64,000 bases of DNA from positions 282,227 through 346,226 of the forward strand of contig JBDRWW010000001.1 in assembly GCA_039802605.1 (NCBI GenBank), written 5' to 3'. How positions within the stretch are numbered: the stretch's first letter is position 1; each line of letters opens with the position of its first letter. Below are positions 2,468 to 26,211 of the stretch, one piece after another. The stretch is from a candidate division WOR-3 bacterium. GTDB lineage: Bacteria; Hydrothermota; Hydrothermia; LBFQ01. Under the pieces are notes generated by a model. It searched no databases and was not told the origin of the DNA. It saw only the letters and a program-made list of their open reading frames with translations. The translations under genes were made by a program, and so were the position numbers.

Positions 2468-3550
2468 CCCTTTACCTTTTGTTGAACGAGATAAGCCTTT
2501 ATAAATTCATCCAAATCCCCTTCCAAGACACTTTCGGCGTTTCCGGTTTCGTATCCCGTTCTATGGTCTTTAACGAGTTTATAAGGATGTAGAATATAAG
2601 ACCTTATCTGGTGCCCCCATTCTATTGAGGATTTTGGACCCATAAGTTTTTCAAGTTCCTCTTCTTGCTGTCTCTTATAATACTCGTAAAGCCTTGCTCT
2701 CAAAATTTTTAAAGCATTTTCCTTGTTTTGGTGTTGAGACCTTTCGCTTTGCATTACCACGGTTATACCGGTTGGTATATGTCTAACCCTAACGGCAGTT
2801 TCATTCTTTTGCATATGCTGACCACCTGGACCTCCGGATCTAAAAGTTTCTATTTCTATTTCATCTTCCTTTATCTCAACTTCTACCTCGGGCATTTCCG
2901 GATATACCGTAACCGCAGCGAAAGATGTATGCCTCCTCTTATTGGCATCAAAGGGTGAAATCCTTACAAGTCTATGAACACCCTTTTCCCCCTTTAAATA
3001 ACCATAAGCGTAAGGACCCTTTATATGTATGGTTGCGGATTTTATCCCAGCAACATCCCCCTTTTGATAATCCAATATTTCAACTTTAAAGCCTTTTCTT
3101 TCAGCCCATCTGATATACATTTTCAAAAGCATTTCCGCCCAATCTTGGCTTTCGGTTCCACCCGCTCCTGGATGGATTTCCAAAAAGGCGTTTTGAACAT
3201 CTTCCTTTTGTGTAAATAGGGTTCTTATCTGAAAATCCAATACATCCCTTTTTAACCTTTTAACCTCTTCTTCCAATTCCTTCAACATATCCGGATCACT
3301 TTCCGCCATTTCATAAACTTCCCTTACATAACCTATCCTATCCACCAAGTCCTTATAATCCTCCAAGAGTTTTTTCAGAGCCCCCAATTCCTTCATTTTC
3401 TCGGATGCCCTACCAGGATCGCTCCAAAATTCCGATCTTCCACTTTCTTCTTCCAAAGTCTTTATCTTCTCTTCAATTTCTTCTATGTTAAAGATACCCC
3501 CTTATGGTTTCAATTTCCTCAATCAATTCCTCAATTTCGGAAAACATCAT
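2464..3550 (-). CDS. prfB: peptide chain release factor 2, requires programmed +1 frameshift
   Basis: SPF and GGQ motifs in the 330-aa ORF; upstream 20-codon ORF0 (MMFSEIEELIEEIETIRGYL) ends at AGGGGGTATCTTTAAC; shifting +1 after CTT joins the frames. Confidence 0.85.
3487..3502 (-). promoter_or_regulatory. RF2 programmed +1 frameshift site (SD-like AGGGGG, slippery CUU, in-frame UAA stop, then C)
   Basis: reverse complement of 3487-3502 reads AGGGGGTATCTTTAAC, identical to the E. coli prfB site except UAA replaces UGA. Confidence 0.8.
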
Positions 3551-15335: not shown

Positions 15336-17765
15336 TCATCTAACCACCACCTTATAAACCCTACCGCCTTCTTTTACAAAATAAATACCCCTTTTCAGTT
15401 GCACAAATCCCTTTCCTTTGAAAACCCTTCTGCCATCCACAGAATAGATTTCACCGCTTAGATAAACCCCGTATTTTGATGAATAAAATCCCATCGCAAC
15501 CCCCTTTTCATTCTCAACATAGGATAACACCGGGCATATTGGGTTTGTGGTGTAAAACAACCTTAAATAAAGGGTTGCGGAATCCCCGGGTGAAAGGGTA
15601 TAAGGTCCTGAACCGATCATAGCCGACCAATCGCTTACGGTATCTGGTGGAAAGGATATATCACCCCTTAAAAGGAGAAACTTTACGCTATCGTCCATTA
15701 TCTCAAACCAGCTTGCGTTTTTTATAAAAGAAATGTTTGAAAGCGGGTTCAAAGCCTGCAAACCTATATAACCGTTGAAGCTGCCATCAACCGCCCCCAT
15801 TAACAAACACCTATAAGTTGGATACATGTATCCCGTATCCTTACTCGGCCTTCCAACATCAAAATCCGCAAAAAATCCTATATAACCGGATATAGTTGAA
15901 GGTGTAGTATTTTTAACGGTAAAGGCCAAATGTATAAATGTATCCCCGCCGTACCCGTATCCGGAAAGGGTGTATTCCAAACCGTTGCTATCACGCTGTT
16001 CAATGTAGTAGCCCTGCGGGACAAAGGGTATAAACTTAAATGTATCCGTAGGGTAAAAGTCTCTATCGTTTCCGTCTTTACCTATCCAAGCATCGCTAAC
16101 ATTTGAATGGGAAATTCCAAAGGCAAAACTCCCCAAATATAAATTTCCAATGCCCCCATACCAGAGGTTAAAAAACTTTCCCGTTCTCGTAAAAGAGACC
16201 TTTAAAGCGGTTGTATCAATGCTAACATATTCCCTTGGAGGATTTCCAAAAGGTACGAGTATGCCGTTTATAGTGCTATCGCTATAAGAAATCTTTAAAA
16301 CAAAGGATATGTATTCGCCGTCGTTTATACCACTTGCGAATATTTCAAAGGATACGGAAAATGTATCCGAGGCCGGGACGGTGGCATTAAAGGGTGGTGT
16401 GTTTATGGAAACCCTTGTATCGGATGTTTGTAGGGAAAAGTTTGCCAAGGAAGATGAAGCGGTATAATTCTTTATTAAAACCACCAAAGTGTCAAGTCCA
16501 TCAAACCTTCCATCCTTTATTTGCCAAGATAAAACCCTTGGTAAAATTGTTGAAGGTAAGGGTGTATTCTTTACGGCTTTCCAAGCGTTAACCCTTCCCC
16601 AACCGTATGAATTGTTGGGATAGGGGGAACCCCATGGGAAGGTATCGGTTGAATAGGTTAAAATGTTATAAATATCGTAAAATGTTAAAGATGGATTCTT
16701 TTGAAGCATTAAGGCTATTACCCCCGCGGTTATAGGTGATGAAAGCGATGTTCCACTTGCGGTTCTAAAACCCCCCCCTATGTTTGTGGTCAATACAGCT
16801 ACGCCCGGGGCAACCACATCGGGTTTTAAAAGGTTCCATGTCGGATAAGGCCAGTATGTGGGGTCATTCCAAGGGTTTTTGTTGGGGGCTGGGCCCCTTG
16901 ATGAAAACGATGCCAATGTATCGCCGGAATTTGTAGCCCCAACACCTATAACCAACGGATAGTTTCCAGGGGAGAAATTAACACCCGGGGTATTCCCCAG
17001 AGCAAATACGGGAATAATTCCGGCCATCCTTAAAAGGTATATATCGTTCCAATATTCAAGCGAGCCACTCGTATCACCGGTTTTCCAAGAGCCGTTATAC
17101 ACCCTTATGTCATAGCCGGAGTCTATTTTCCATTCGAGGATCTTTGAAAAACCCAGGTGAGTTGCAACTTCGTTTGATGTTATATAATATCCAAACATCC
17201 TAACAACCGCTATTTTTGCCCCGGGTGCCACGCCCGTGCTATCCGCCACCAAAACCCCCGATACCAAGGTTCCATGCGGGAGTATGGGGGAATCCGTGGG
17301 CCTTTCACTACCCTCAACGGCGTCGTACCATATGCCCGACCACTTCCCTATTAAATACGGGTGACTCGTATCTATTCCGGTATCCATTATAACCACCAAA
17401 ACCCCATTTCCATTATAGCCGTTTGCCCAACAGGAGTCCGCCATAATTTTATCTAAGGCCCAAGAACCCGTTGAATTCCTTCCGTAATCGTATATTGGTA
17501 AAAGTTCAACCGTTCCGGCTTTGTGGTACCCAACCGCGCCTAATACATCCCTTATTTTGTTCAGGTTTTCTTTGGATGTATATACGGCCACGGCGTTTGC
17601 CGATGGTAAGGGTATAACGCTATCCGCGAGGTTATAACTTTTTAAAAGGTTTGCCCTTTGACTTGTTTGCAGTTTTAACATTTGAAAAAGGGGTTTTACA
17701 TCCCTAAACTTATAATCCACAACATTACCAAGGGAAAAAATATACCAACCCATCATATCGCACAT
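15336..17765 (-). CDS. subtilisin-like serine peptidase (S8) with T9SS-type C-terminal sorting domain
   Basis: 809 aa; VIMDTGID, HGTLVSG, GTSLSSP triad contexts; C-terminal GIYFVKEGGRVYKVVVR CTD paralogous to the 7868-10021 protein. Confidence 0.8.
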   Translation of the reverse strand: MCDMMGWYIFSLGNVVDYKFRDVKPLFQMLKLQTSQRANLLKSYNLADSVIPLPSANAVAVYTSKENLNKIRDVLGAVGYHKAGTVELLPIYDYGRNSTGSWALDKIMADSCWANGYNGNGVLVVIMDTGIDTSHPYLIGKWSGIWYDAVEGSERPTDSPILPHGTLVSGVLVADSTGVAPGAKIAVVRMFGYYITSNEVATHLGFSKILEWKIDSGYDIRVYNGSWKTGDTSGSLEYWNDIYLLRMAGIIPVFALGNTPGVNFSPGNYPLVIGVGATNSGDTLASFSSRGPAPNKNPWNDPTYWPYPTWNLLKPDVVAPGVAVLTTNIGGGFRTASGTSLSSPITAGVIALMLQKNPSLTFYDIYNILTYSTDTFPWGSPYPNNSYGWGRVNAWKAVKNTPLPSTILPRVLSWQIKDGRFDGLDTLVVLIKNYTASSSLANFSLQTSDTRVSINTPPFNATVPASDTFSVSFEIFASGINDGEYISFVLKISYSDSTINGILVPFGNPPREYVSIDTTALKVSFTRTGKFFNLWYGGIGNLYLGSFAFGISHSNVSDAWIGKDGNDRDFYPTDTFKFIPFVPQGYYIEQRDSNGLEYTLSGYGYGGDTFIHLAFTVKNTTPSTISGYIGFFADFDVGRPSKDTGYMYPTYRCLLMGAVDGSFNGYIGLQALNPLSNISFIKNASWFEIMDDSVKFLLLRGDISFPPDTVSDWSAMIGSGPYTLSPGDSATLYLRLFYTTNPICPVLSYVENEKGVAMGFYSSKYGVYLSGEIYSVDGRRVFKGKGFVQLKRGIYFVKEGGRVYKVVVR

Positions 17766-17799
17766 TTTATAGTTGAAAAACCCACCTTAAAATACTTGT

Positions 17800-18825
17800 T
17801 TGTCCTTGAAGGAAGTCAGGGAGATAATCGAAGGTGTTGTTAAGGGGAAGAAAACGGGGGTTTTGAGGATTTATAGGAAAATGTTCGGCGATCCCCTTTT
17901 GTATGTAACATTTTTGAAAGGCACACCTGTATATGCTTACTCGTTTCTCGTAAAGGAGAAGTGGTATGACGGTCTTCTGAGTTACGAAGAAGTGGAAAAC
18001 AACCTTTTTGGAAACCTTTTTGAATACGCCTTCAAAAAACACGGACAAAAATATGTGGAACACCTCGTTGTTTATTCAAATAGGGTTATTCAAGAGGCTC
18101 TAACCGGTGCCGTAGAAAACAATTGGCAATTGGAGGCGGAATTTATCCATGAGGATGAGGATACCGTAAGGGAAAGTATTGGGATTTTAAAGGTTAAAAG
18201 TGAAATAGAAGCCTTCGCAAAAACCTTGCAATCACTTGGGGCAAAAGAGATTTTTATACCCAAATTGGATAAGTTCATAGGTTATTACGCCCAGAGCGAT
18301 TTAAGGGATATTTACAACTTTATGGTTAAGGCATTCGGTGATTGCGACAACATATTTTCATCTCCGTTTGGAAACATTTTTATTATCCACAAATACGGCC
18401 AACCAGTCGTATTTTCTATGGAAAATGTTTTAATAGGTGAAGATGTTGAAAGGTTGATCAGTATAATTGAGGGTTCGGAAAAGGTGTTGTTTGGAGGCAA
18501 AATTGAAGGGGGACAAAGGATTGAGGTTCCGGTATTTAAAACCTACGGGAAACCCTTTTTAATATCGTTAAGAACGGATGAAGGGTTTTTAACCCTGCAT
18601 TTAAAAAGCGACAAGGTTTATATGATGGATGTAAAACCTACAAACGCGGTTTTTTCAACAATTTCGGAATACAACGAGAAGATAAGTATCGCGCTCTATG
18701 ATATGCTCGGTAAGGAGACAAAAATTAAGTCTCAGGATATCGTTGATATGCGAATAAAAATCCTTTTGATGAAGTACCCCAATCCACAGGAGTTTAAGGA
18801 AGTTGTTCAGAAGGAGAGGTTTTAA
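17800..18825 (+). CDS. hypothetical protein, possible DUF4388/PATAN-like N-terminal domain
   Basis: 341 aa; TTG start; N-terminal GVLRIYRKMFGDPLLYVTFLKGTPVYAYS resembles the DUF4388 pattern. Confidence 0.35.
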   Translation: MSLKEVREIIEGVVKGKKTGVLRIYRKMFGDPLLYVTFLKGTPVYAYSFLVKEKWYDGLLSYEEVENNLFGNLFEYAFKKHGQKYVEHLVVYSNRVIQEALTGAVENNWQLEAEFIHEDEDTVRESIGILKVKSEIEAFAKTLQSLGAKEIFIPKLDKFIGYYAQSDLRDIYNFMVKAFGDCDNIFSSPFGNIFIIHKYGQPVVFSMENVLIGEDVERLISIIEGSEKVLFGGKIEGGQRIEVPVFKTYGKPFLISLRTDEGFLTLHLKSDKVYMMDVKPTNAVFSTISEYNEKISIALYDMLGKETKIKSQDIVDMRIKILLMKYPNPQEFKEVVQKERF

Positions 18826-19753: not shown

Positions 19754-20728
19754 TTGCGAATAGCAATTGTTGGGGCTACGGGGTTGGTGGGGAGGAAAAT
19801 GTTAGAGGTTTTGGAGGAAAGACTCTGGAAGGAAAATCCCGAAATTATCCCCTTAGCCTCCGAAAAATCCGCCGGTAAAACCCTGCACTTTCTAAACAAA
19901 ACCATAAAAGTTTTGCCTTTGGAATACGAAATTCCCGAGGTTGATTATGCTTTATTTTCGGCGGGTTCCGAAATATCCAAAAAGTTTGCCCCACTTTTTG
20001 TTGAAAGGGGGGCGGTTGTAATTGATAATTCAAGCGCTTTCCGTTTGGATGAGAGAGTACCCCTTGTGGTACCGGAGGTAAATCCGGAAGATATAAAGAA
20101 TCACAAGGGCATAATATCCAACCCAAATTGTTCCACGATACAAATGGTAGCTTTTTTAAAGCCACTACTGGACGCCTTCGGCATAGAAGAGGTTTTTGTT
20201 GCCACATATCAGTCGGTTTCGGGTGCGGGTATGAAAGGTCTGATGGCTTTGAACGAGGAGGAGAGGGGTGGAATATACGATGATACGCCTTTCCCCACAA
20301 GGATATACCGCAATGTTATCCCACAAATTGGAGATTTTTTTGAGGGTTATTCAACCGAGGAGTGGAAGATGATAAAGGAAACAAAAAAAATACTGAAAAG
20401 CGATATAAAGGTTTATCCAACAACGGTTAGGGTTCCGGTTGAGGTTGGGCATTCGGAAGCGATAACGGTTATATTAAAAAGTTCCCCATCAATTGAAGAT
20501 GTTTATGAGGTTTTGGAAAGGGCAAAGGGTTTAAAGGTTTTGAGGGATGGATATTCAACCCCCATAGATGTTGAGGATAAGGACTATGTTGTGGTAAGTA
20601 GGTTAAGGTTTAACCCTGACAATTCAAGGGCTTTGAGCGCCTGGGTTGTGGCGGATAATTTGCGTAAGGGTGCCGCAACGAATGCGGTTCAAATTTTGGA
20701 ACTTTTAATAAAAGGTGGATTGGAATAA
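19754..20728 (+). CDS. asd: aspartate-semialdehyde dehydrogenase
   Basis: IAIVGATGLVGRKML Rossmann motif and NPNCSTI active-site Cys; the ORF-track start at 19712 lies inside the tRNA, so the likely start is TTG at 19754. Confidence 0.85.
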   Translation: MRIAIVGATGLVGRKMLEVLEERLWKENPEIIPLASEKSAGKTLHFLNKTIKVLPLEYEIPEVDYALFSAGSEISKKFAPLFVERGAVVIDNSSAFRLDERVPLVVPEVNPEDIKNHKGIISNPNCSTIQMVAFLKPLLDAFGIEEVFVATYQSVSGAGMKGLMALNEEERGGIYDDTPFPTRIYRNVIPQIGDFFEGYSTEEWKMIKETKKILKSDIKVYPTTVRVPVEVGHSEAITVILKSSPSIEDVYEVLERAKGLKVLRDGYSTPIDVEDKDYVVVSRLRFNPDNSRALSAWVVADNLRKGAATNAVQILELLIKGGLE

Positions 20729-21404
20729 CATAATCCCACACCTTGAAGAACTCAGGAATAGAATAATACGGGCTTTTCTTATATACGCCTTAGTTTCGGT
20801 TATAATGTGGTTTTTTCACGATTATGTTATAAGGTTTATATCCCAACCCGTTGGGAAGCTGTACATTTTTAATGTTCAGGATGCCTTTATGCTTAGGTTA
20901 AAGGTTTCATTAATGTCTGCCCTGTTTATATGTCTCCCATACTTTGTTTTGGAAATTTGGGGTTTTATATCCCCAGCACTCTATCCCAACGAAAAACTCG
21001 CCGTAGGGCTTATTCTCATTTCAACCCTTGTACTTTTTTACTTAGGCGCATTTTTGTCCATTTTTGTGATATTACCCAGGGCGGTTGTTTTTCTACTTTC
21101 TTTTTCTTCTGGATTTCAGACCATAATAGGCGCAAACCAATATTTGGACTTTATATTTTGGAGCACATTGATATTCGGAGTTTTATTTGAACTTCCGGTC
21201 GCGGTGGGTATATTGGCAAGATTAGGGATAATAAACAGCAAGTTATTAACCAAGAGGCGTAGGGAGATGATAGTGGGTATAGTCATAGTGGCGGCGGTAA
21301 TATCCCCTACCGTAGATGCTTTTAGCCTTATAGCAATGTCTTTACCTTTAATATTGTTGTATGAAATCAGTATATGGGTGGCCAAGGTTGTTGAAAAGAA
21401 ATAA
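20715..21404 (+). CDS. tatC: twin-arginine translocase subunit TatC
   Basis: 229 aa; GTG start; HLEELRNRII N-terminal motif and six predicted TM segments. Confidence 0.7.
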   Translation: MDWNNIIPHLEELRNRIIRAFLIYALVSVIMWFFHDYVIRFISQPVGKLYIFNVQDAFMLRLKVSLMSALFICLPYFVLEIWGFISPALYPNEKLAVGLILISTLVLFYLGAFLSIFVILPRAVVFLLSFSSGFQTIIGANQYLDFIFWSTLIFGVLFELPVAVGILARLGIINSKLLTKRRREMIVGIVIVAAVISPTVDAFSLIAMSLPLILLYEISIWVAKVVEKK

Positions 21405-21431
21405 TTTACAACCTTAGAATATAAAACGAAT

Positions 21432-21986
21432 ATGGAGGTTTATTCAAGGGAAAAGGTTTGGACATATGAGGATTACTTAAAACTTGAAGACGATAAGCGT
21501 TATGAGGTTATTAACGGGAGGTTGGTAGAAATGCCCGCGCCGGGTTTTGAACATCAAAAGGTTTTAAATGCCATAAACTTGAAGATTTACACTTTCGTGT
21601 TGGAAAAGGATTTTGGCGAAATTGTCCCATCACCCTTTGATGTTATATTATCCGAGGATATCGTAGTTCAGCCGGATATAGTTTTTATATCCAAAGATAA
21701 CTTGAAAAACATAAGAGAAGGCCGTTTGTTTGGCGCCCCGGACATGATTGTTGAAATAGTATCGCCAGGTAGTTATAATAGGGATAGGTATGAAAAATTC
21801 AAAATATATGAAGAGTTTGGTGTTAAGGAGTATTGGATAGTTTTACCCGGTGAAAAGGCGGTGGAGGTGTGGGTTTTGGGTGAGAAGGGAAAATATGAAC
21901 TTTACTCCTTTGCGGAAAAAGAGGGGAAGGTTAAAAGCAAAGTTTTAGAAGGCTTAGAAATTGATTTAAAGGGGGTGTTTGGATGA
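21432..21986 (+). CDS. Uma2-family (DUF820) putative PD-(D/E)xK endonuclease, tandem copy 1
   Basis: 184 aa; PDIVFI ... APDMIVEIVSP motifs; paralog of the next three genes. Confidence 0.7.
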   Translation: MEVYSREKVWTYEDYLKLEDDKRYEVINGRLVEMPAPGFEHQKVLNAINLKIYTFVLEKDFGEIVPSPFDVILSEDIVVQPDIVFISKDNLKNIREGRLFGAPDMIVEIVSPGSYNRDRYEKFKIYEEFGVKEYWIVLPGEKAVEVWVLGEKGKYELYSFAEKEGKVKSKVLEGLEIDLKGVFG

Positions 21987-22537
21987 ATACGGAAGTTAAG
22001 GAAAAAGTTTGGACTTATGAGGATTATTTAAAACTTGAAGATGATAAGCGTTATGAGGTTATTAACGGGAGGTTGGTAGAAATGCCCGCGCCTACTCCTT
22101 GGCATCAGGATATTTCAAGGAATTTGTTATTTCTACTTTGGGGATTTGTTAAGGGCAAAGACTTGGGTAAAATATACCACTCTCCCATAGATATAGTGTT
22201 AAGAGAAGATGTGGTATTACAACCCGATATAGTTTATATTTCAAAGGAAAAACTCGGGATAGTAGGGGAGAAAGCGGTAAATGGCACGCCGGACTTGGTT
22301 GTAGAAATAGTTTCGCCATCAACGGCACGGAGGGATACGGTAGTTAAGAAGGGGATATATGAAAATTTTGGTGTTAAGGAATATTGGATTGTTTATCCCG
22401 ATGAAAAGGCGATAGAGGTATGGGTTTTAAATGAAAGCGGAAAATATGAACTTTATTCCTTTGCAGAAAAAGAGGGGAAGGTTAAAAGTAAAGTTTTGGA
22501 AGGCTTAGAGGTTGATTTAAAGGAGGTGTTCGGATGA
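21983..22537 (+). CDS. Uma2-family putative endonuclease, tandem copy 2
   Basis: 184 aa; ATGA overlap with copy 1; N-half variant (TPWHQ), C-half type B. Confidence 0.7.
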   Translation: MNTEVKEKVWTYEDYLKLEDDKRYEVINGRLVEMPAPTPWHQDISRNLLFLLWGFVKGKDLGKIYHSPIDIVLREDVVLQPDIVYISKEKLGIVGEKAVNGTPDLVVEIVSPSTARRDTVVKKGIYENFGVKEYWIVYPDEKAIEVWVLNESGKYELYSFAEKEGKVKSKVLEGLEVDLKEVFG

Positions 22538-23085
22538 AGGAAATGGTTAAGGAAAGGATTTGGACTTACGAGGATTATTTGAAACTTGAAGACGATAAGC
22601 GTTATGAGGTTATTAACGGGAGGTTGGTAGAAATGCCCGCGCCGGGTTTTGAACATCAGAAGATTTCGGGCTTAATAGACTTTATATTGCGGAAATTTGT
22701 CTATAAAGAGCGCATAGGGGAAGTTTTATATGCCCCCTTTGATGTAATACTTTCGGAAAATATCGTAGTTCAACCGGATATAGTTTTCATATCAAACGAA
22801 AATCTGAAAAACATAAAAGAAGGGCGTCTTTTCGGTCCTCCGGACTTGGTTGTGGAAATAGTATCTCCGGGCAGTTATAAGAGGGATAGATTTGAAAAGT
22901 TCAAGATATACGAGGAATTTGGGGTTAAAGAGTATTGGATAGTTTTACCGGGCGAAAAGGTAATAGAGGTTTGGTGTTTGAAGGAAGGTAAGTATGTTTT
23001 ACACTCCATAGCCGTTGAAAAGGGGGAGGTTGAAAGCTGCCTTTTAAAGGGTTTAAAGGTAAAAGTTGAGGAGGTGTTTAAATGA
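22534..23085 (+). CDS. Uma2-family putative endonuclease, tandem copy 3
   Basis: 183 aa; ATGA overlap; N-half type A, C-half type A. Confidence 0.7.
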   Translation: MKEMVKERIWTYEDYLKLEDDKRYEVINGRLVEMPAPGFEHQKISGLIDFILRKFVYKERIGEVLYAPFDVILSENIVVQPDIVFISNENLKNIKEGRLFGPPDLVVEIVSPGSYKRDRFEKFKIYEEFGVKEYWIVLPGEKVIEVWCLKEGKYVLHSIAVEKGEVESCLLKGLKVKVEEVFK

Positions 23086-23633
23086 AAGTGGATGTTAAGG
23101 AAAAAGTTTGGACTTACGAGGATTATTTGAAACTTGAAGATGATAAGCGTTATGAGGTTATTAACGGGAGGTTGGTAGAAATGCCCGCGCCGGGTTTTGA
23201 ACATCAGGATATTCTTACCGAGCTGATTTTAAAATTTAAAGTTTTTACTAAGGAGAATACTTTGGGAAAGGTTATTCCCTCCCCATTTGATGTAATACTC
23301 TCGGAAAGTGTTGTCGTTCAACCCGACATAGTTTATATATCAAAAGAAAACCTGAAAAACATAAAAGAGGGTCGCTTATTCGGGGCTCCGGACTTGGTTG
23401 TAGAAATAGTTTCGCCATCAACAACGAGGAGGGATACGGTTGTCAAGAAGGGGATATATGAAAATTTTGGTGTTAAGGAATATTGGATTGTTTATCCCGA
23501 TGAAAAGGCAATAGAGGTGTGGGTTTTGGGTGAGAAGGGAAAGGAGGGTTATGAACTTTATTCCTTTGCCGAGAAAAAAGTTAAAAGCAAGGTTTTAGGA
23601 GGCTTAGAGGTTGATTTAAAGGAAGTGTTTTAA
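23082..23633 (+). CDS. Uma2-family putative endonuclease, tandem copy 4
   Basis: 183 aa; ATGA overlap; N-half type A, C-half type B (mosaic). Confidence 0.7.
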   Translation: MKVDVKEKVWTYEDYLKLEDDKRYEVINGRLVEMPAPGFEHQDILTELILKFKVFTKENTLGKVIPSPFDVILSESVVVQPDIVYISKENLKNIKEGRLFGAPDLVVEIVSPSTTRRDTVVKKGIYENFGVKEYWIVYPDEKAIEVWVLGEKGKEGYELYSFAEKKVKSKVLGGLEVDLKEVF

Positions 23634-23667
23634 TATCAAAATCCCTTCAACCTTATAATTTTCACCC

Positions 23668-26211
23668 GTGAAATCAAAGGAAATTAGGAAAGTTTTTTTG
23701 GAGTTTTTTAAAGAAAGGGGGCATACCATTGTTCAATCTTCCCCACTATTACCGCCAGACCCCACGCTCTTATTTACAAATGCTGGGATGAACCAGTTTA
23801 AACCCTATTTTCTCGGGGAGATGGAACCCCCTTTCAAAAGGGCGGCATCCGTACAAAAATGTTTAAGGGCGGGTGGGAAACATAACGACTTGGATAATGT
23901 GGGATTTACGAGAAGGCACCACACATTTTTTGAAATGCTCGGTAATTTTAGTTTTGGGGATTACTTTAAAAAGGAGGCCATTGTTTGGGCTTGGGAACTT
24001 TTAACGGGAGTTTTCAAAATACCCAAGGATAGATTGTGGATAACCGTGTACGAGGAGGATGAGGAGGCTTATAGCATTTGGAAGGATGAGGTTGGAGTAA
24101 GCCCCGATAGAATTATAAAAATGGGCGCCAAGGATAACTTTTGGGAAATGGGCGATGTCGGTCCATGCGGTCCATCTTCCGAAATAATTTACGATTTGGG
24201 AGAAGAATCCGACCCAAATCAAAAAACCCCAAAGGATGAAGGTGAGAGGTTCTTGGAGTTGTGGAATCTCGTTTTTATGCAGTTTAACCGCAAAGCGGAT
24301 GGTAGTTTGGAACCCCTACCCAAAAAGAACATAGATACCGGCATGGGTTTGGAGAGAATAGCATCGGTTTTGCAGGGTACATACTCCAACTACGAAACGG
24401 ATCTGTTTATGCCGATAATAAACTTTATAGAGGATATAACTGGGGTTAAATACACATATGAAACCGGAGCCCCCCATAGGGTTATAGCAGACCATACAAG
24501 GGCATTGGTTTTTGCAATATCTGACGGTATATACCCTTCAAATTTTGGCAGGGGTTATGTTTTGAGGAGGATTTTGAGGAGGGCTTACAGGTTTGCCCAA
24601 AAGTTAAATGTGGCGGAGCCAATAATTTATAAGGTGGCGGATGTCGTAGCGGATATTATGGGGGATGTATATCCCGAGGTAAGGGAAAACATTAAAACGA
24701 TCAAGGAGATTATTAAAAACGAAGAGGAAAGGTTTTTGAATACACTCGGCAGGGCTATTCCGGTTTTAATTGAAAGCCTTGAAAACGCAAAAGAAGGGGG
24801 TATATTGGACGGTAAGACGGCTTTCACCCTATATGACACATATGGTATACCCCAGGACATGATAGACGACTGGGCAACAACTTATAAAATAAAAATTGAC
24901 TGGCAGGGATTTTGGGAGGAGATGGAAGATGCAAAGGAAAGGTCAAGGGAGAGCGCAAAGTTTAAGCTCTTAGTGCCCGAGTGGTTAAAAGTTTCCGAGG
25001 ATTACACGGGTTCAAAGTTTGTTGGGTATGATAATTTGCGATGGAAATCGCGAGTTGCAAAAATAGGTAAAATAAACAATCTGGATGCATTGGTATGTTT
25101 TGAAACACCTTTTTACCCAGAAGGTGGAGGGCAGGTAGGTGATGTGGGGATTATTAAGGGCAAGACTTGGGAATTTAAAGTTGAGGATACGAAAAGGATA
25201 GGAATGGATATCATACATTACGGGAAATTAAAGGGAAGCGTAGATATCGGGGATGAATGTGATCTGTTGGTTTCCGAAAAGGAAAGAAATGCGGCAAGAA
25301 GGGCGCACACTTCAACACACCTCCTTCACGCATCTTTAAGGGCCATTTTGGGTCATCATGTAAGGCAGCAGGGTTCTTTGGTTGAAAGGGAGAGGTTGAG
25401 GTTTGACTTTTCCCACCCAAAACCCCTATCCGATGAGGAAATAAATGAAATTGAAAACCTGGTAAACGAGAAGATAAGGGAAAATATTCCGGTTTCACAG
25501 GAGTACAAACCTTATAGGGAGGCGGTAAGAGAAGGGGCCATTGCCATTTTTGAGGAAAAATATGGCGAAATAGTTAGGGTTATAACCATTGGGGATTTCT
25601 CAAAAGAACTATGCGGGGGAACACATGTCGATAGAACCGGGGACATTGGGGTTTTCATTATAACAAAAGAGGAAAGCGTATCAGCCGGGACCAGGAGAAT
25701 AGAGGCATTGGTTGGTGAGAGGGCTTTAAAGTATATCCAAGAGCATAGGGATATATTAAAGGCTTCGGCCGGATTACTCAACACCGGTATCAAGGATTTG
25801 CCGAAGGTGATTAACAAACGCTTGGAGGAGTATAGGCAACTTGAAGGGGAACTCAATTCAATTTACGATAAACTTGCGGAAATATACGCCGAAAGGGTTA
25901 AGGTTATGGATAAGGGGGAATTTAAGGTTATATATGGAATTGCGCCACTACCAAAGGATGCCCTTAGAAGGGTTGGGGATAAGGTATCGGAGCCCTTGGG
26001 AATAACCGTTCTCGTGTCGGAACATCCAAAGGATAGGGGTTTTATACATATCAGAATAGGGAACGGATTAAACGGGAAGGTATCGGCAAAGGAGATAATT
26101 TCAAAGATAACAAAGGAGTTAGGAGGGGGAGGGGGTGGAAGCGATGTTAAAGCCGAGGGGAAAATAAAGGATGTTAAAGGGCTTGAAAAGGTTTTGAAGG
26201 GTGTGATATGA
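23668..26211 (+). CDS. alaS: alanine--tRNA ligase
   Basis: 847 aa; GTG start; class II aaRS catalytic core, editing domain HxxxH (HTSTHLLH) and CxxxH. Confidence 0.9.
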   Translation: MKSKEIRKVFLEFFKERGHTIVQSSPLLPPDPTLLFTNAGMNQFKPYFLGEMEPPFKRAASVQKCLRAGGKHNDLDNVGFTRRHHTFFEMLGNFSFGDYFKKEAIVWAWELLTGVFKIPKDRLWITVYEEDEEAYSIWKDEVGVSPDRIIKMGAKDNFWEMGDVGPCGPSSEIIYDLGEESDPNQKTPKDEGERFLELWNLVFMQFNRKADGSLEPLPKKNIDTGMGLERIASVLQGTYSNYETDLFMPIINFIEDITGVKYTYETGAPHRVIADHTRALVFAISDGIYPSNFGRGYVLRRILRRAYRFAQKLNVAEPIIYKVADVVADIMGDVYPEVRENIKTIKEIIKNEEERFLNTLGRAIPVLIESLENAKEGGILDGKTAFTLYDTYGIPQDMIDDWATTYKIKIDWQGFWEEMEDAKERSRESAKFKLLVPEWLKVSEDYTGSKFVGYDNLRWKSRVAKIGKINNLDALVCFETPFYPEGGGQVGDVGIIKGKTWEFKVEDTKRIGMDIIHYGKLKGSVDIGDECDLLVSEKERNAARRAHTSTHLLHASLRAILGHHVRQQGSLVERERLRFDFSHPKPLSDEEINEIENLVNEKIRENIPVSQEYKPYREAVREGAIAIFEEKYGEIVRVITIGDFSKELCGGTHVDRTGDIGVFIITKEESVSAGTRRIEALVGERALKYIQEHRDILKASAGLLNTGIKDLPKVINKRLEEYRQLEGELNSIYDKLAEIYAERVKVMDKGEFKVIYGIAPLPKDALRRVGDKVSEPLGITVLVSEHPKDRGFIHIRIGNGLNGKVSAKEIISKITKELGGGGGGSDVKAEGKIKDVKGLEKVLKGVI

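Follow-up and report, generated by a model that had tools for sequence, protein, structure and literature searches.

A mosaic tandem array of Uma2-family genes in a candidate division WOR-3 bacterium and its probable origin by exchange among paralogs

The DNA analysed here, a stretch of 64,000 nucleotides (the window), comes from a candidate division WOR-3 bacterium (assembly GCA_039802605.1, contig JBDRWW010000001.1, positions 282,227 to 346,226 of the forward strand). Between tatC and alaS it carries a head-to-tail array of four genes, c1 to c4, of the Uma2/COG4636 (DUF820) family. Taken as a whole, the array is probably a recombining cassette of an expanded subfamily of predicted nucleases. 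The evolutionary and anatomical part of this account is held with good confidence. The functional part is tentative; in it the genes would encode small, active nucleases, each paralog with a recognition of its own, that have a restriction-like or toxin-like role and behave in part selfishly. The genome has at least five operon-like cassettes of such predicted small PD-EXX-K nucleases, the array among them. The mosaic structure of the four genes is the product of ordinary homologous exchange in a multigene family, and not of a mechanism that is dedicated to diversification or active in it at present. At orthologous sites, sister species differ in the number of Uma2 genes and in which ones are present; in the sampled population the array is fixed.

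Each gene of the array (Table 1) overlaps the next in an ATGA stop/start junction, and spacers of 27 nt and 34 nt separate the array from tatC and alaS, respectively. The arrangement of the four open reading frames (ORFs) and their flanks is as described in an earlier interpretation of the DNA, made from its letters alone (the sequence-only reading). All four proteins match the Pfam family PF05685 (Uma2) with 122-127 bits against a gathering cut-off of 27 and cover profile positions 2-171 of 172, so that the family assignment made in that reading stands. NCBIfam contains no family match for the array proteins, and no other Uma2 genes were found in the 64-kb window. The protein comparison also agrees with the division into two N-terminal types (GFEHQ in c1, c3 and c4; TPWHQ in c2) and two C-terminal types (SPGSY..RDRYEKFKIYEEF in c1 and c3; SPST.RRDTVVKKGIYENF in c2 and c4). 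The statement that Uma2 proteins have no established function is in accord with the literature and database search.

The mosaic pattern was examined by sliding-window identities on a DNA alignment of c1-c4, in which the zones are given in alignment columns. Columns 26-110 are nearly identical in all four genes, with 100% identity from 61 to 110, and in columns 111-120 c2 alone differs. They are followed by a hypervariable zone (columns 126-200), where every pair is only 30-50% identical, little different from a random match. C2 again stands apart from the other three copies, which resemble one another, in columns 200-310. The grouping changes in columns 316-435, where c1 is paired with c3 (~80%) and c2 with c4 (90-100%), and once more in columns 436-555, where c3 departs from a group formed by c1, c2 and c4 (~90%). 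The odd-one-out sites are clustered, the same outlier being found at 72 of 136 adjacent sites (permutation p=1e-5). The grouping of c1 with c3 and of c2 with c4 is backed by a run of 21 consecutive informative sites in columns 330-419, and the longest identical tracts, 50-77 nt, are above those of all 5000 column shuffles for every pair. The clustering, the 21-site run and the long identical tracts together require at least two breakpoints, and rate variation alone cannot yield the changes of topology along the alignment. The mosaicism proposed in the sequence-only reading is borne out by the clustering of sites, and uniform divergence was not seen. Its segment pattern is correct as to the two-type halves, but it missed the block identical in four copies, the hypervariable stretch and the third segment in which c3 is the outlier. 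Similarly, the near-identity of the c2 and c4 C-terminal halves is real, but extends over ~120 nt (columns ~316-435) and not over ~150 nt.

The parental forms of the mosaic were recognised in other genomes. Each gene consists of three modules, which are the N-core of type A or B (codons 38-105), the C1 module of type a or b (codons 106-145) and the tail of type 1 or 2 (codons 146-184). A set of 33 diagnostic amino-acid columns was defined from the distant WOR-3 genomes JALUCS, JALWYV and WFXS alone and then applied to c1-c4. In these three genomes 19 of 19 genes with an A core have the architecture A-a-2 (lineage P1), and all eight TPW/TPL-type genes are B-b-1 (lineage P2). In the window, c3 belongs to P1 and c2 to P2 at the diagnostic columns throughout. 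C4 changes from P1 to P2 between codons 110 and 114, which confirms on independent columns the earlier claim that it is a recombinant of an A-type front and a B-type back. A second chimera, overlooked in that reading, is c1, which changes from P1 to P2 between codons ~126 and 147. Both breakpoints fall in the most conserved stretches of the gene, PDLVVEIVSP and GVKEYWIV..P.EK..EVW, as is expected for homologous exchange. The architectures A-b-1 (c4-type) and A-a-1 (c1-type), with the same breakpoints, are also present in other arrays of the genome and in the sister species CAYRSH. The chimeric architectures are therefore old, recurrent, or both, and do not represent a recent event in the array.

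The hypervariable zone corresponds to a short cassette (codons 43-66), most of which is a predicted helix. It occurs in discrete classes, which are kept across species and are joined to different backbones and loci. The helix DNA of c4 is 89% identical to that of CAYRSH gene L009_3, an A-a-1 gene of the kdtA site with a different C1 module, and at most 53% identical to the other genes of the two species. The helix class RISRNLEFKLWEFVKE.. is found on A-a-2, A-a-1 and A-b backbones. The classes of c2 and c3 recur in distant WOR-3 genomes, that of c3 in same-architecture genes of three of them. The conserved modules behave differently. For the N-block, C1 and the tail, the nearest relatives of every window copy are in the same genome, at any locus and in any architecture (0.93-0.98 identity). 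Third-position identity between modules of the same type is higher within the genome of the window than between species, for example 0.80 versus 0.64 for C1-b; housekeeping genes of the two species, taken as a baseline, have an identity of 0.88-0.93 over all nucleotides and of 0.76-0.82 over third positions. In six helix-orthologous gene pairs, the helix has a synonymous divergence (dS) of 0.46 and an omega of 0.13, and the flanking N-block and core have a dS of 1.0-1.25. These pairs were picked for similarity, which biases the helix dS downward, but the flank dS is still far above the species divergence. As the flank dS exceeds by far both the helix dS and the species divergence, the flanks and the helix have different histories. 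The modules are under purifying selection (omega 0.07-0.13), and the omega of 0.13 found within helix classes led to the rejection of ongoing positive selection on the helix.

These results show that the conserved modules are exchanged and homogenised among ~15 paralogs (concerted evolution), and that the helix cassette is kept distinct under purifying selection, without hypermutation. The mosaics would have arisen by homologous recombination, gene conversion and unequal crossing-over between tandem and dispersed paralogs, with the conserved blocks possibly serving as crossover sites. The shuffling by recombination or gene conversion that the sequence-only reading had proposed is thus supported in so far as reshuffling was repeated, as is seen from one helix class on different 3' modules, the dS discordance and the presence of two versus four copies at one site in the two species. 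That it acts "actively" is not borne out. The exact sequence of c1 is found on about 20 contigs of candidate division WOR-3 metagenome-assembled genomes (MAGs) of the GCA_0398024xx-0398027xx series, and a comparison of six sibling MAG loci gave an identity of 99.8-100% for the array, with neither the gene order nor the segment combination changed. Copy number and order, which had been expected to be informative in relatives, do not vary among these six siblings, but orthologous sites of different species are unlike in both number and content.

The comparison between species is based on two sites. At the kdtA-patatin site the flanking proteins are 89-98% identical between the species, and the Uma2 genes, two in the window's species versus four in CAYRSH, are 60-80% identical. 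At the tatC site of CAYRSH, Asd and TatC are 93-94% identical to those of the window. The first Uma2 gene at this site keeps a c1-like N-terminus (MGVYSKEK versus MEVYSREK), has another helix class and a b-type C1 module, and is ~70% identical to c1-c4. An empty tatC-alaS site was not found; the sole orthologous junction recovered (CAYRSH L033) is occupied, its contig ending in the first Uma2 gene. Another locus (L007) holds the closest relative of c1, but without alaS.

The genome of the window contains at least five head-to-tail Uma2 arrays, including that of the window, with ~15 genes in total. All of them lie amid housekeeping genes, the neighbours being tatC/alaS, kdtA/patatin, NUDIX, LolA/AhpC and GatB among others. 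A scan of species-representative genomes and a census of loci with hidden Markov models (HMMs) indicate that a WOR-3 genome typically has several arrays, each with 2-6 genes; the homologs in Aquificaceae are mostly single genes. Some array members carry in-frame deletions. One gene of the same species (L059, 2929-3354) is a 141-aa remnant without the helix and part of the core, and two others (L063, 5001-5528, and CAYRSH L009, 5486-6001) have lost 9 aa and 13 aa, respectively, of the C1 module. Single copies therefore decay while arrays persist. In a further locus of the same species (L061, 4970-5000; GCA_039802625.1), the first gene of a two-gene array is preceded by ..GATATAAAGGAGGTGTTCGG, directly followed by its ATG. 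This sequence appears to be a relic of the lost 3' end of an upstream Uma2 gene (..D-I-K-E-V-F-G) and a trace of array contraction.

A divergent subtype of Uma2, called D (WTYEDYLSGRIPxEVSEVxxGKEVRKMP...), scores 44-84 bits against an HMM derived from the window. It is interleaved in most arrays of the WOR-3 MAGs WGFI, JALUCS, JALWYV, WFXS and JALWZG (L012, L053, L014-L027), and one array (L053) is composed of D genes entirely. The five arrays of the window's species yielded no D gene.

The family active site is a variant of PD-EXX-K with an additional His, in which the Asp is in the PD motif, the Glu in the next strand, and the catalytic Lys has moved to the following helix; in the protein all3650 these residues are H43, D83, E111 and K127 (PMC551604). 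In c1-c4 the corresponding residues H41, D82 (in QPD), E108 (in VEIVS) and K122 are invariant and their spacings match the published ones. H41, E108 and K122 do not vary among 45 relatives, in which the conservation of D82 is 90% or more. The predicted structure has E108 in strand E105-109 and K122 in helix H112-129. The AlphaFold2 (AF2) model (pLDDT 94, pTM 0.89) superimposes on 6OKH with a TM-score of 0.92-0.95 and matches 9Y1L, 3OT2 and 1WDJ; the predicted fold is that of a restriction endonuclease, as in the solved members 1WDJ, 3OT2 and 6OKH. All the Protein Data Bank entries of the family are labelled uncharacterised or putative, and no paper on the oligomer interfaces of 1WDJ, 3OT2, 6OKH or 9Y1L was found in the literature.

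In the same model, codons 43-66 comprise most of helix H39-59, which begins at His41-Gln42, together with the following loop and strand. The buried stripe of the helix is made up of positions 44, 48, 52, 55 and 56, which are hydrophobic in every case. Variability is high (2.5-3.4 bits) at positions 43, 46, 47, 49, 50, 53, 54 and 57-60, where aromatic residues are frequent, and this suggests that the variable face of the helix is an interaction surface. Each paralog would be an active nuclease, and its variable face would determine a substrate or partner particular to that paralog. The most plausible biological role would be an activity directed at nucleic acids, restriction-like or toxin-like, in a gene family that is also partly selfish. 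Obligate heterodimers or toxin-antidote pairs, which would give non-random heterotypic arrays with A beside non-A genes, were considered and dropped, because shuffling of types within genomes gave no significant result (P=0.23 for adjacent genes of the same type and P=0.08 for homotypic arrays).

The array is most likely a single, translationally coupled transcription unit with a short or absent leader, as far as its sequence signals can tell. C1 has no Shine-Dalgarno (SD) sequence, from which a leaderless or short-leader mRNA is inferred, and the putative -10 box of the array is a copy of a motif, CCTTAnAAT (CCTTANAAT), that is overrepresented in the window (17 sites versus 7.1 expected; none of 100 shuffles reaches 17). 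The sites include positions 3351, 13666, 17785, 19658, 21412, 23651, 30821 and 63753 on the plus strand. The motif sits 7-18 nt upstream of the start codons of genes without an SD sequence. It also stands before the first gene of four other Uma2 arrays examined (L057, L059, L063 and CAY L056) and before the orthologous tatC-site gene in CAY (L033). These occurrences suggest that leaderless or very short-leader mRNAs are common in the WOR-3 lineage and that SD sequences are used for internal cistrons alone. Transcription would start from the -10-like box just upstream of c1, and a second promoter-like site, that of alaS, appears to mark the 3' limit of the unit. Each of c2-c4 would be translated by coupling through an SD sequence in the preceding gene; this coupling is indicated by the embedded SD elements and the ATGA overlaps, and codons 181-182 (GAG GTG) are synonymously constrained across the family. 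Internal promoters or terminators within the array were rejected as candidates, since a generic scan is at chance level and the lineage-specific CCTTAnAAT box is the sole informative signal.

An unexpected feature of the genes is an SD-like sequence, GGGAGG, inside the conserved N-block, followed after 9 nt by a near-invariant in-frame ATG, that of Met34. In a census of codon constraint (63 genes from 7 genomes, loci L007-L027), codon 29 is GGG in 62 of 63 genes, codon 30 is AGG in 62 of 62, and codon 31 is TTR in 63 of 63, a constraint far above that of any other column. The D subtype has a different peptide at this place (G-K/E-E-V-R/K-K-M), yet 19 of its 20 genes have GGAGG (AAGGAGGT) 8 nt before the Met, and the sole exception is a truncated gene that lacks both the GGAGG and the ATG. 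In the window, GGAGG followed within 5-10 nt by an in-frame ATG is found in all four Uma2 genes versus three occurrences in 43 other long ORFs. In distant Gly-Glu homologs the codons at the GGGAGG position vary. This pattern suggests an internal start at Met34, which would give the core domain alone (~150 aa). A further proposal, which is speculative and on balance unlikely, is that each Uma2 gene encodes two proteins, the full-length form and the N-truncated core of ~150 aa, and that the short form modulates or inhibits the long one. The arrays would then be self-limiting repertoires of differing specificities with a swappable helix cassette. Short forms that modulate the long form of the same protein are known in Tn5 Tnp/Inh and McrB-L/McrB-S. 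If true, the two-protein proposal would explain how dozens of stand-alone "solo toxin" nucleases are tolerated without methylases or antitoxins.

Table 1. Features of the Uma2 array and its flanks (window coordinates), and the other Uma2 arrays of the same genome
Feature	Position	Strand	Description
c1	21432-21986	+	184 aa; Uma2 paralog, architecture A-a-1; chimera, P1 to ~codon 125, P2 from codon 148
c2	21983-22537	+	184 aa; Uma2 paralog, architecture B-b-1; parental lineage P2 throughout (TPWHQ type)
c3	22534-23085	+	183 aa; Uma2 paralog, architecture A-a-2; parental lineage P1 throughout
c4	23082-23633	+	183 aa; Uma2 paralog, architecture A-b-1; chimera, P1 to codon 110, P2 from codon 114
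Conserved N-block (codons 9-37)	21456-21542 (c1), 22007-22093 (c2), 22558-22644 (c3), 23106-23192 (c4)	+	DNA identity 95% overall, 100% in columns 61-110
Hypervariable cassette (codons 43-66)	21558-21629 (c1), 22109-22180 (c2), 22660-22731 (c3), 23208-23279 (c4)	+	Outward face of core helix H39-59, next loop and strand (predicted)
c1 breakpoint interval	21807-21872	+	Codons 126-147, in conserved GVKEYWIV..P.EK..EVW; from diagnostic-site pattern
c4 breakpoint interval	23409-23423	+	Codons 110-114, end of conserved PDLVVEIVSP with catalytic Glu108; from diagnostic-site pattern
Candidate internal start: GGGAGG (codons 29-30) and in-frame ATG (Met34)	21516-21533 (c1), 22067-22084 (c2), 22618-22635 (c3), 23166-23183 (c4)	+	Spacer 9 nt
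Promoter-like site of array	21391-21420	+	TTGAAA-18 nt-TAGAAT; -10 box in CCTTAGAAT (21412-21420), 11 nt before c1 ATG
SD-like element for c2	21969-21977	+	AAGGGGGTG; last c1 codons, 7 nt before c2 ATG
SD-like element for c3	22522-22526	+	GGAGG
SD-like element for c4	23070-23074	+	GGAGG
Promoter-like site of alaS	23630-23659	+	TTAATA-18 nt-TATAAT; CCTTATAAT at 23651-23659, 8 nt before alaS GTG
tatC	20715-21404	+	Upstream flank, outside array; ORF and Pfam TatC label on identical sibling contigs
alaS	23668-26211	+	Downstream flank, outside array; ORF and Pfam label on identical sibling contigs
Other array: kdtA-like glycosyltransferase-[2]-patatin			Same genome
Other array: NUDIX-[5, first degraded]-530-aa gene			Same genome
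Other array: pair adjoining 354-aa gene			Same genome
Other array: LolA-[2]-AhpC			Same genome

Two antisense ORFs, 22453-22656 (-) and 22875-23204 (-), of 67 and 109 aa, begin at the reverse complement of the His41 codon and run through the conserved N-block into the preceding gene. Their N-termini are near-identical (MFKTRRGHFYQPPVNNLITLI..), and they are probably by-products of the conserved sense sequence. Elsewhere in the window, 229 of the 232 differences that separate it over 20.5 kb from the most divergent sibling MAG (L002, GCA_039802765.1) fall within the tract 15432-18431. The tract contains an S8 peptidase gene, 15336-17756 (-), and a 341-aa ORF, 17800-18825, with up to 136 differences per kb to this sibling. 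The strains being otherwise clonal, the tract appears to be either a segment imported locally by recombination or a hypervariable region of a surface protease.

Tandem Uma2 cassettes as such were known from two earlier studies. Feder and Bujnicki defined the fold and the active site of the family in 2005 and described its erratic proliferation, with 95 copies in Gloeobacter, a run of four genes in Crocosphaera watsonii and many tandem pairs, although tandem copies were called rare; they proposed a selfish, nuclease-stimulated recombination (PMC551604). "Cassettes of paralogous genes", including 114 COG4636-COG4636 gene pairs, have been reported for the family (PMC551604; Makarova et al. 2009, PMC2701414), and Makarova et al. 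suggested that it forms a type II toxin-antitoxin module or a solo toxin (PMC2701414). The array described here resembles the known Uma2/COG4636/DUF820 (TT1808) cassettes in Pfam family, fold, the His plus PD-EXX-K site, lineage-specific proliferation and tandem arrangement; in both there is no tie to methyltransferases or mobile elements and the function is unassigned. It differs in its host, an uncultured WOR-3 bacterium and not a cyanobacterium or Thermus, in the translational coupling of the genes by ATGA overlaps, and in that WOR-3 genomes as a rule have several arrays, with 2-6 genes each, where the 2005 study called tandem copies rare. The parental lineages with recurrent chimeras, the protected helix cassette and the homogenisation of modules within genomes are not described in the 2005 and 2009 papers, and no paper on mosaicism or gene conversion in Uma2 was found in the literature. 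What is new is the decomposition into two lineages and their chimeras, the protected helix cassette, the genome-wide homogenisation of the conserved modules, and the conserved internal SD-ATG.

Several other systems were compared with the array. In the lpl tandem paralog cluster of Staphylococcus aureus, a conserved nucleotide stretch within the ORF is a site of homologous recombination (Tsuru & Kobayashi 2008, PMC2568036). Both systems have tandem paralogs, shuffled variable regions, incongruent segment phylogenies within an ORF and changing copy number. The lpl genes, however, encode unrelated lipoproteins, lie in a genomic island and vary between strains of one species; each Uma2 gene here combines several conserved blocks with a single short variable cassette, the arrays are scattered between housekeeping genes, and the population showed no variation. 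The nuclease domains of the type IIG/IIL restriction enzymes DrdV (7LO5) and BpuSI (3S1S), NgoMIV and Hjc are only 4-13% identical to c1-c4. C1-c4 also differ from these PD-(D/E)XK enzymes in that they have no fused or adjacent methyltransferase or target-recognition domain and are small, stand-alone proteins of about 184 aa with the catalytic Lys moved to the following helix. No small ORF other than Uma2, such as the antitoxin gene of a toxin-antitoxin pair, is present within or beside the array. There is no intron or intein context as for homing or mobile-element nucleases, and no empty site was found, the tatC and kdtA sites being occupied in both species examined. A phage or plasmid origin was rejected, as homologs are found in only one of 50,697 phage records and 123 of 72,556 plasmid records.

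Some observations weigh against the explanation by exchange among paralogs or limit it. The excess of similarity within the genome is moderate, and recent duplications could be a partial cause of it. The exchanges that produced c1 and c4 may be ancient and passed on by descent, and may have happened elsewhere than in this array. The siblings are nearly clonal and the array is invariant in six loci, so the tempo of recombination is visible between species alone, where the CAYRSH contigs break within arrays and allow no gene-for-gene comparison of orthologous arrays. On the functional side, the generic scans for sigma-70 promoters and terminators are at chance (13 found versus 12.2 expected, and 6 versus 5.9, respectively), the promoter and SD assignments are motifs in the sequence alone, and nuclease biochemistry for any member of the Uma2 family was not found in the literature searched.

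Two alternatives dispense with recombination in the array. In one, the chimeras are artefacts of mis-assembled Uma2 repeats in metagenome bins. The repeats do trouble assemblers, since two sibling contigs (L005 and L006) end inside the array and CAYRSH contigs break within arrays. This explanation is nevertheless hardly credible, because the 2.2-kb sequence was recovered in independent MAG assemblies, on contigs as long as 198 kb, and differs among them at 0-4 positions, because every ORF is uninterrupted and every ATGA junction exact, and because the same architectures are present in other species in the assemblies of other groups. In the other, c1-c4 are four ancient, vertically inherited subfamilies, and their mosaic look is due to uneven rates and convergence. 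The occurrence of A-a-1 and A-b-1 with the same breakpoints in the window's species and in CAYRSH would fit such a history, as would the stability of the array in the population. It is strongly disfavoured by the abrupt changes of topology with long runs of concordant sites, by the absence of chimeric forms from the three distant genomes, which have the parental types alone, by the finding of one helix class on three different backbones, by the discordance of helix and flank dS, and by the homogenisation within genomes at synonymous sites.

The remaining alternatives accept the exchange and differ as to what drives it. In the case of selfish proliferation only, DNA breaks made by Uma2 proteins would drive recombination, duplication and spread, and the arrays and mosaics would be by-products without a host function. 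This overlaps with the explanation preferred here and, as a complete account, is possible but rather doubtful. The erratic spread of the family, with its 95 Gloeobacter copies and a mechanism already proposed (PMC551604), is in its favour, as are the at least 15 copies wedged in at least five arrays between unrelated housekeeping genes, the decaying copies (in-frame deletions, the 141-aa remnant and the 3'-end relic) and the different copy numbers of the sister species. It is less easily reconciled with the occupation of the tatC and kdtA-patatin sites in both species, by which the insertions are old and stable, with strong purifying selection on all modules including the helix, with a promoter-like box for each array, with discrete helix classes kept across distant species, with the near absence of the family from phages and its rarity on plasmids, and with the lack of mobile-element genes adjacent to the arrays. 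An active, immunity-like diversification, in which ongoing shuffling would keep making new nuclease specificities, was offered by the sequence-only reading as speculation and is still that; it is improbable. All four proteins do match the PADLOC PDC-S03 HMMs (PDLC04832) with 151-164 bits, which places them in one broad family with this candidate; their fold resembles that of restriction endonucleases, type IIG/IIL nuclease domains being the nearest characterised folds, an exposed variable helix face lies beside the catalytic His, and the modules are shuffled. The PDC systems, however, are untested candidates selected by "guilt by embedding", of which some homologs are in BREX, DISARM or type I restriction-modification loci (Payne et al. 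2024, preprint, 10.1101/2024.01.29.577857), and they are the sole link to defence. The arrays here are neither within nor beside a recognisable defence system or defence island, the neighbours of all five being housekeeping genes. No reverse transcriptase, invertase, recombinase or template repeat that would point to a diversity-generating retroelement, a shufflon or a similar system is present in the neighbourhood. The helix falls into separate classes that persist from species to species and evolve under purifying selection (omega 0.13), with no hypermutation; the array is 99.8-100% identical in the six sibling loci compared, and the tests for heterotypic composition were not significant (P=0.23 and 0.08).

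Uma2/COG4636 is among the largest bacterial families of predicted nucleases without an assigned function, with dozens to about a hundred copies in some genomes. That ordinary homologous exchange is the source of the mosaic tempers the immunity-like reading of such arrays. The locus and its relatives constitute a compact natural experiment, in which the parental lineages and clean chimeras with mapped breakpoints are available together. The exposed face of the helix next to the catalytic His is different in every paralog and conserved between species, and every copy contains a candidate internal start. These features show which residues to swap for specificity, which pairs to use in tests of hetero-oligomers, and which isoforms to seek.

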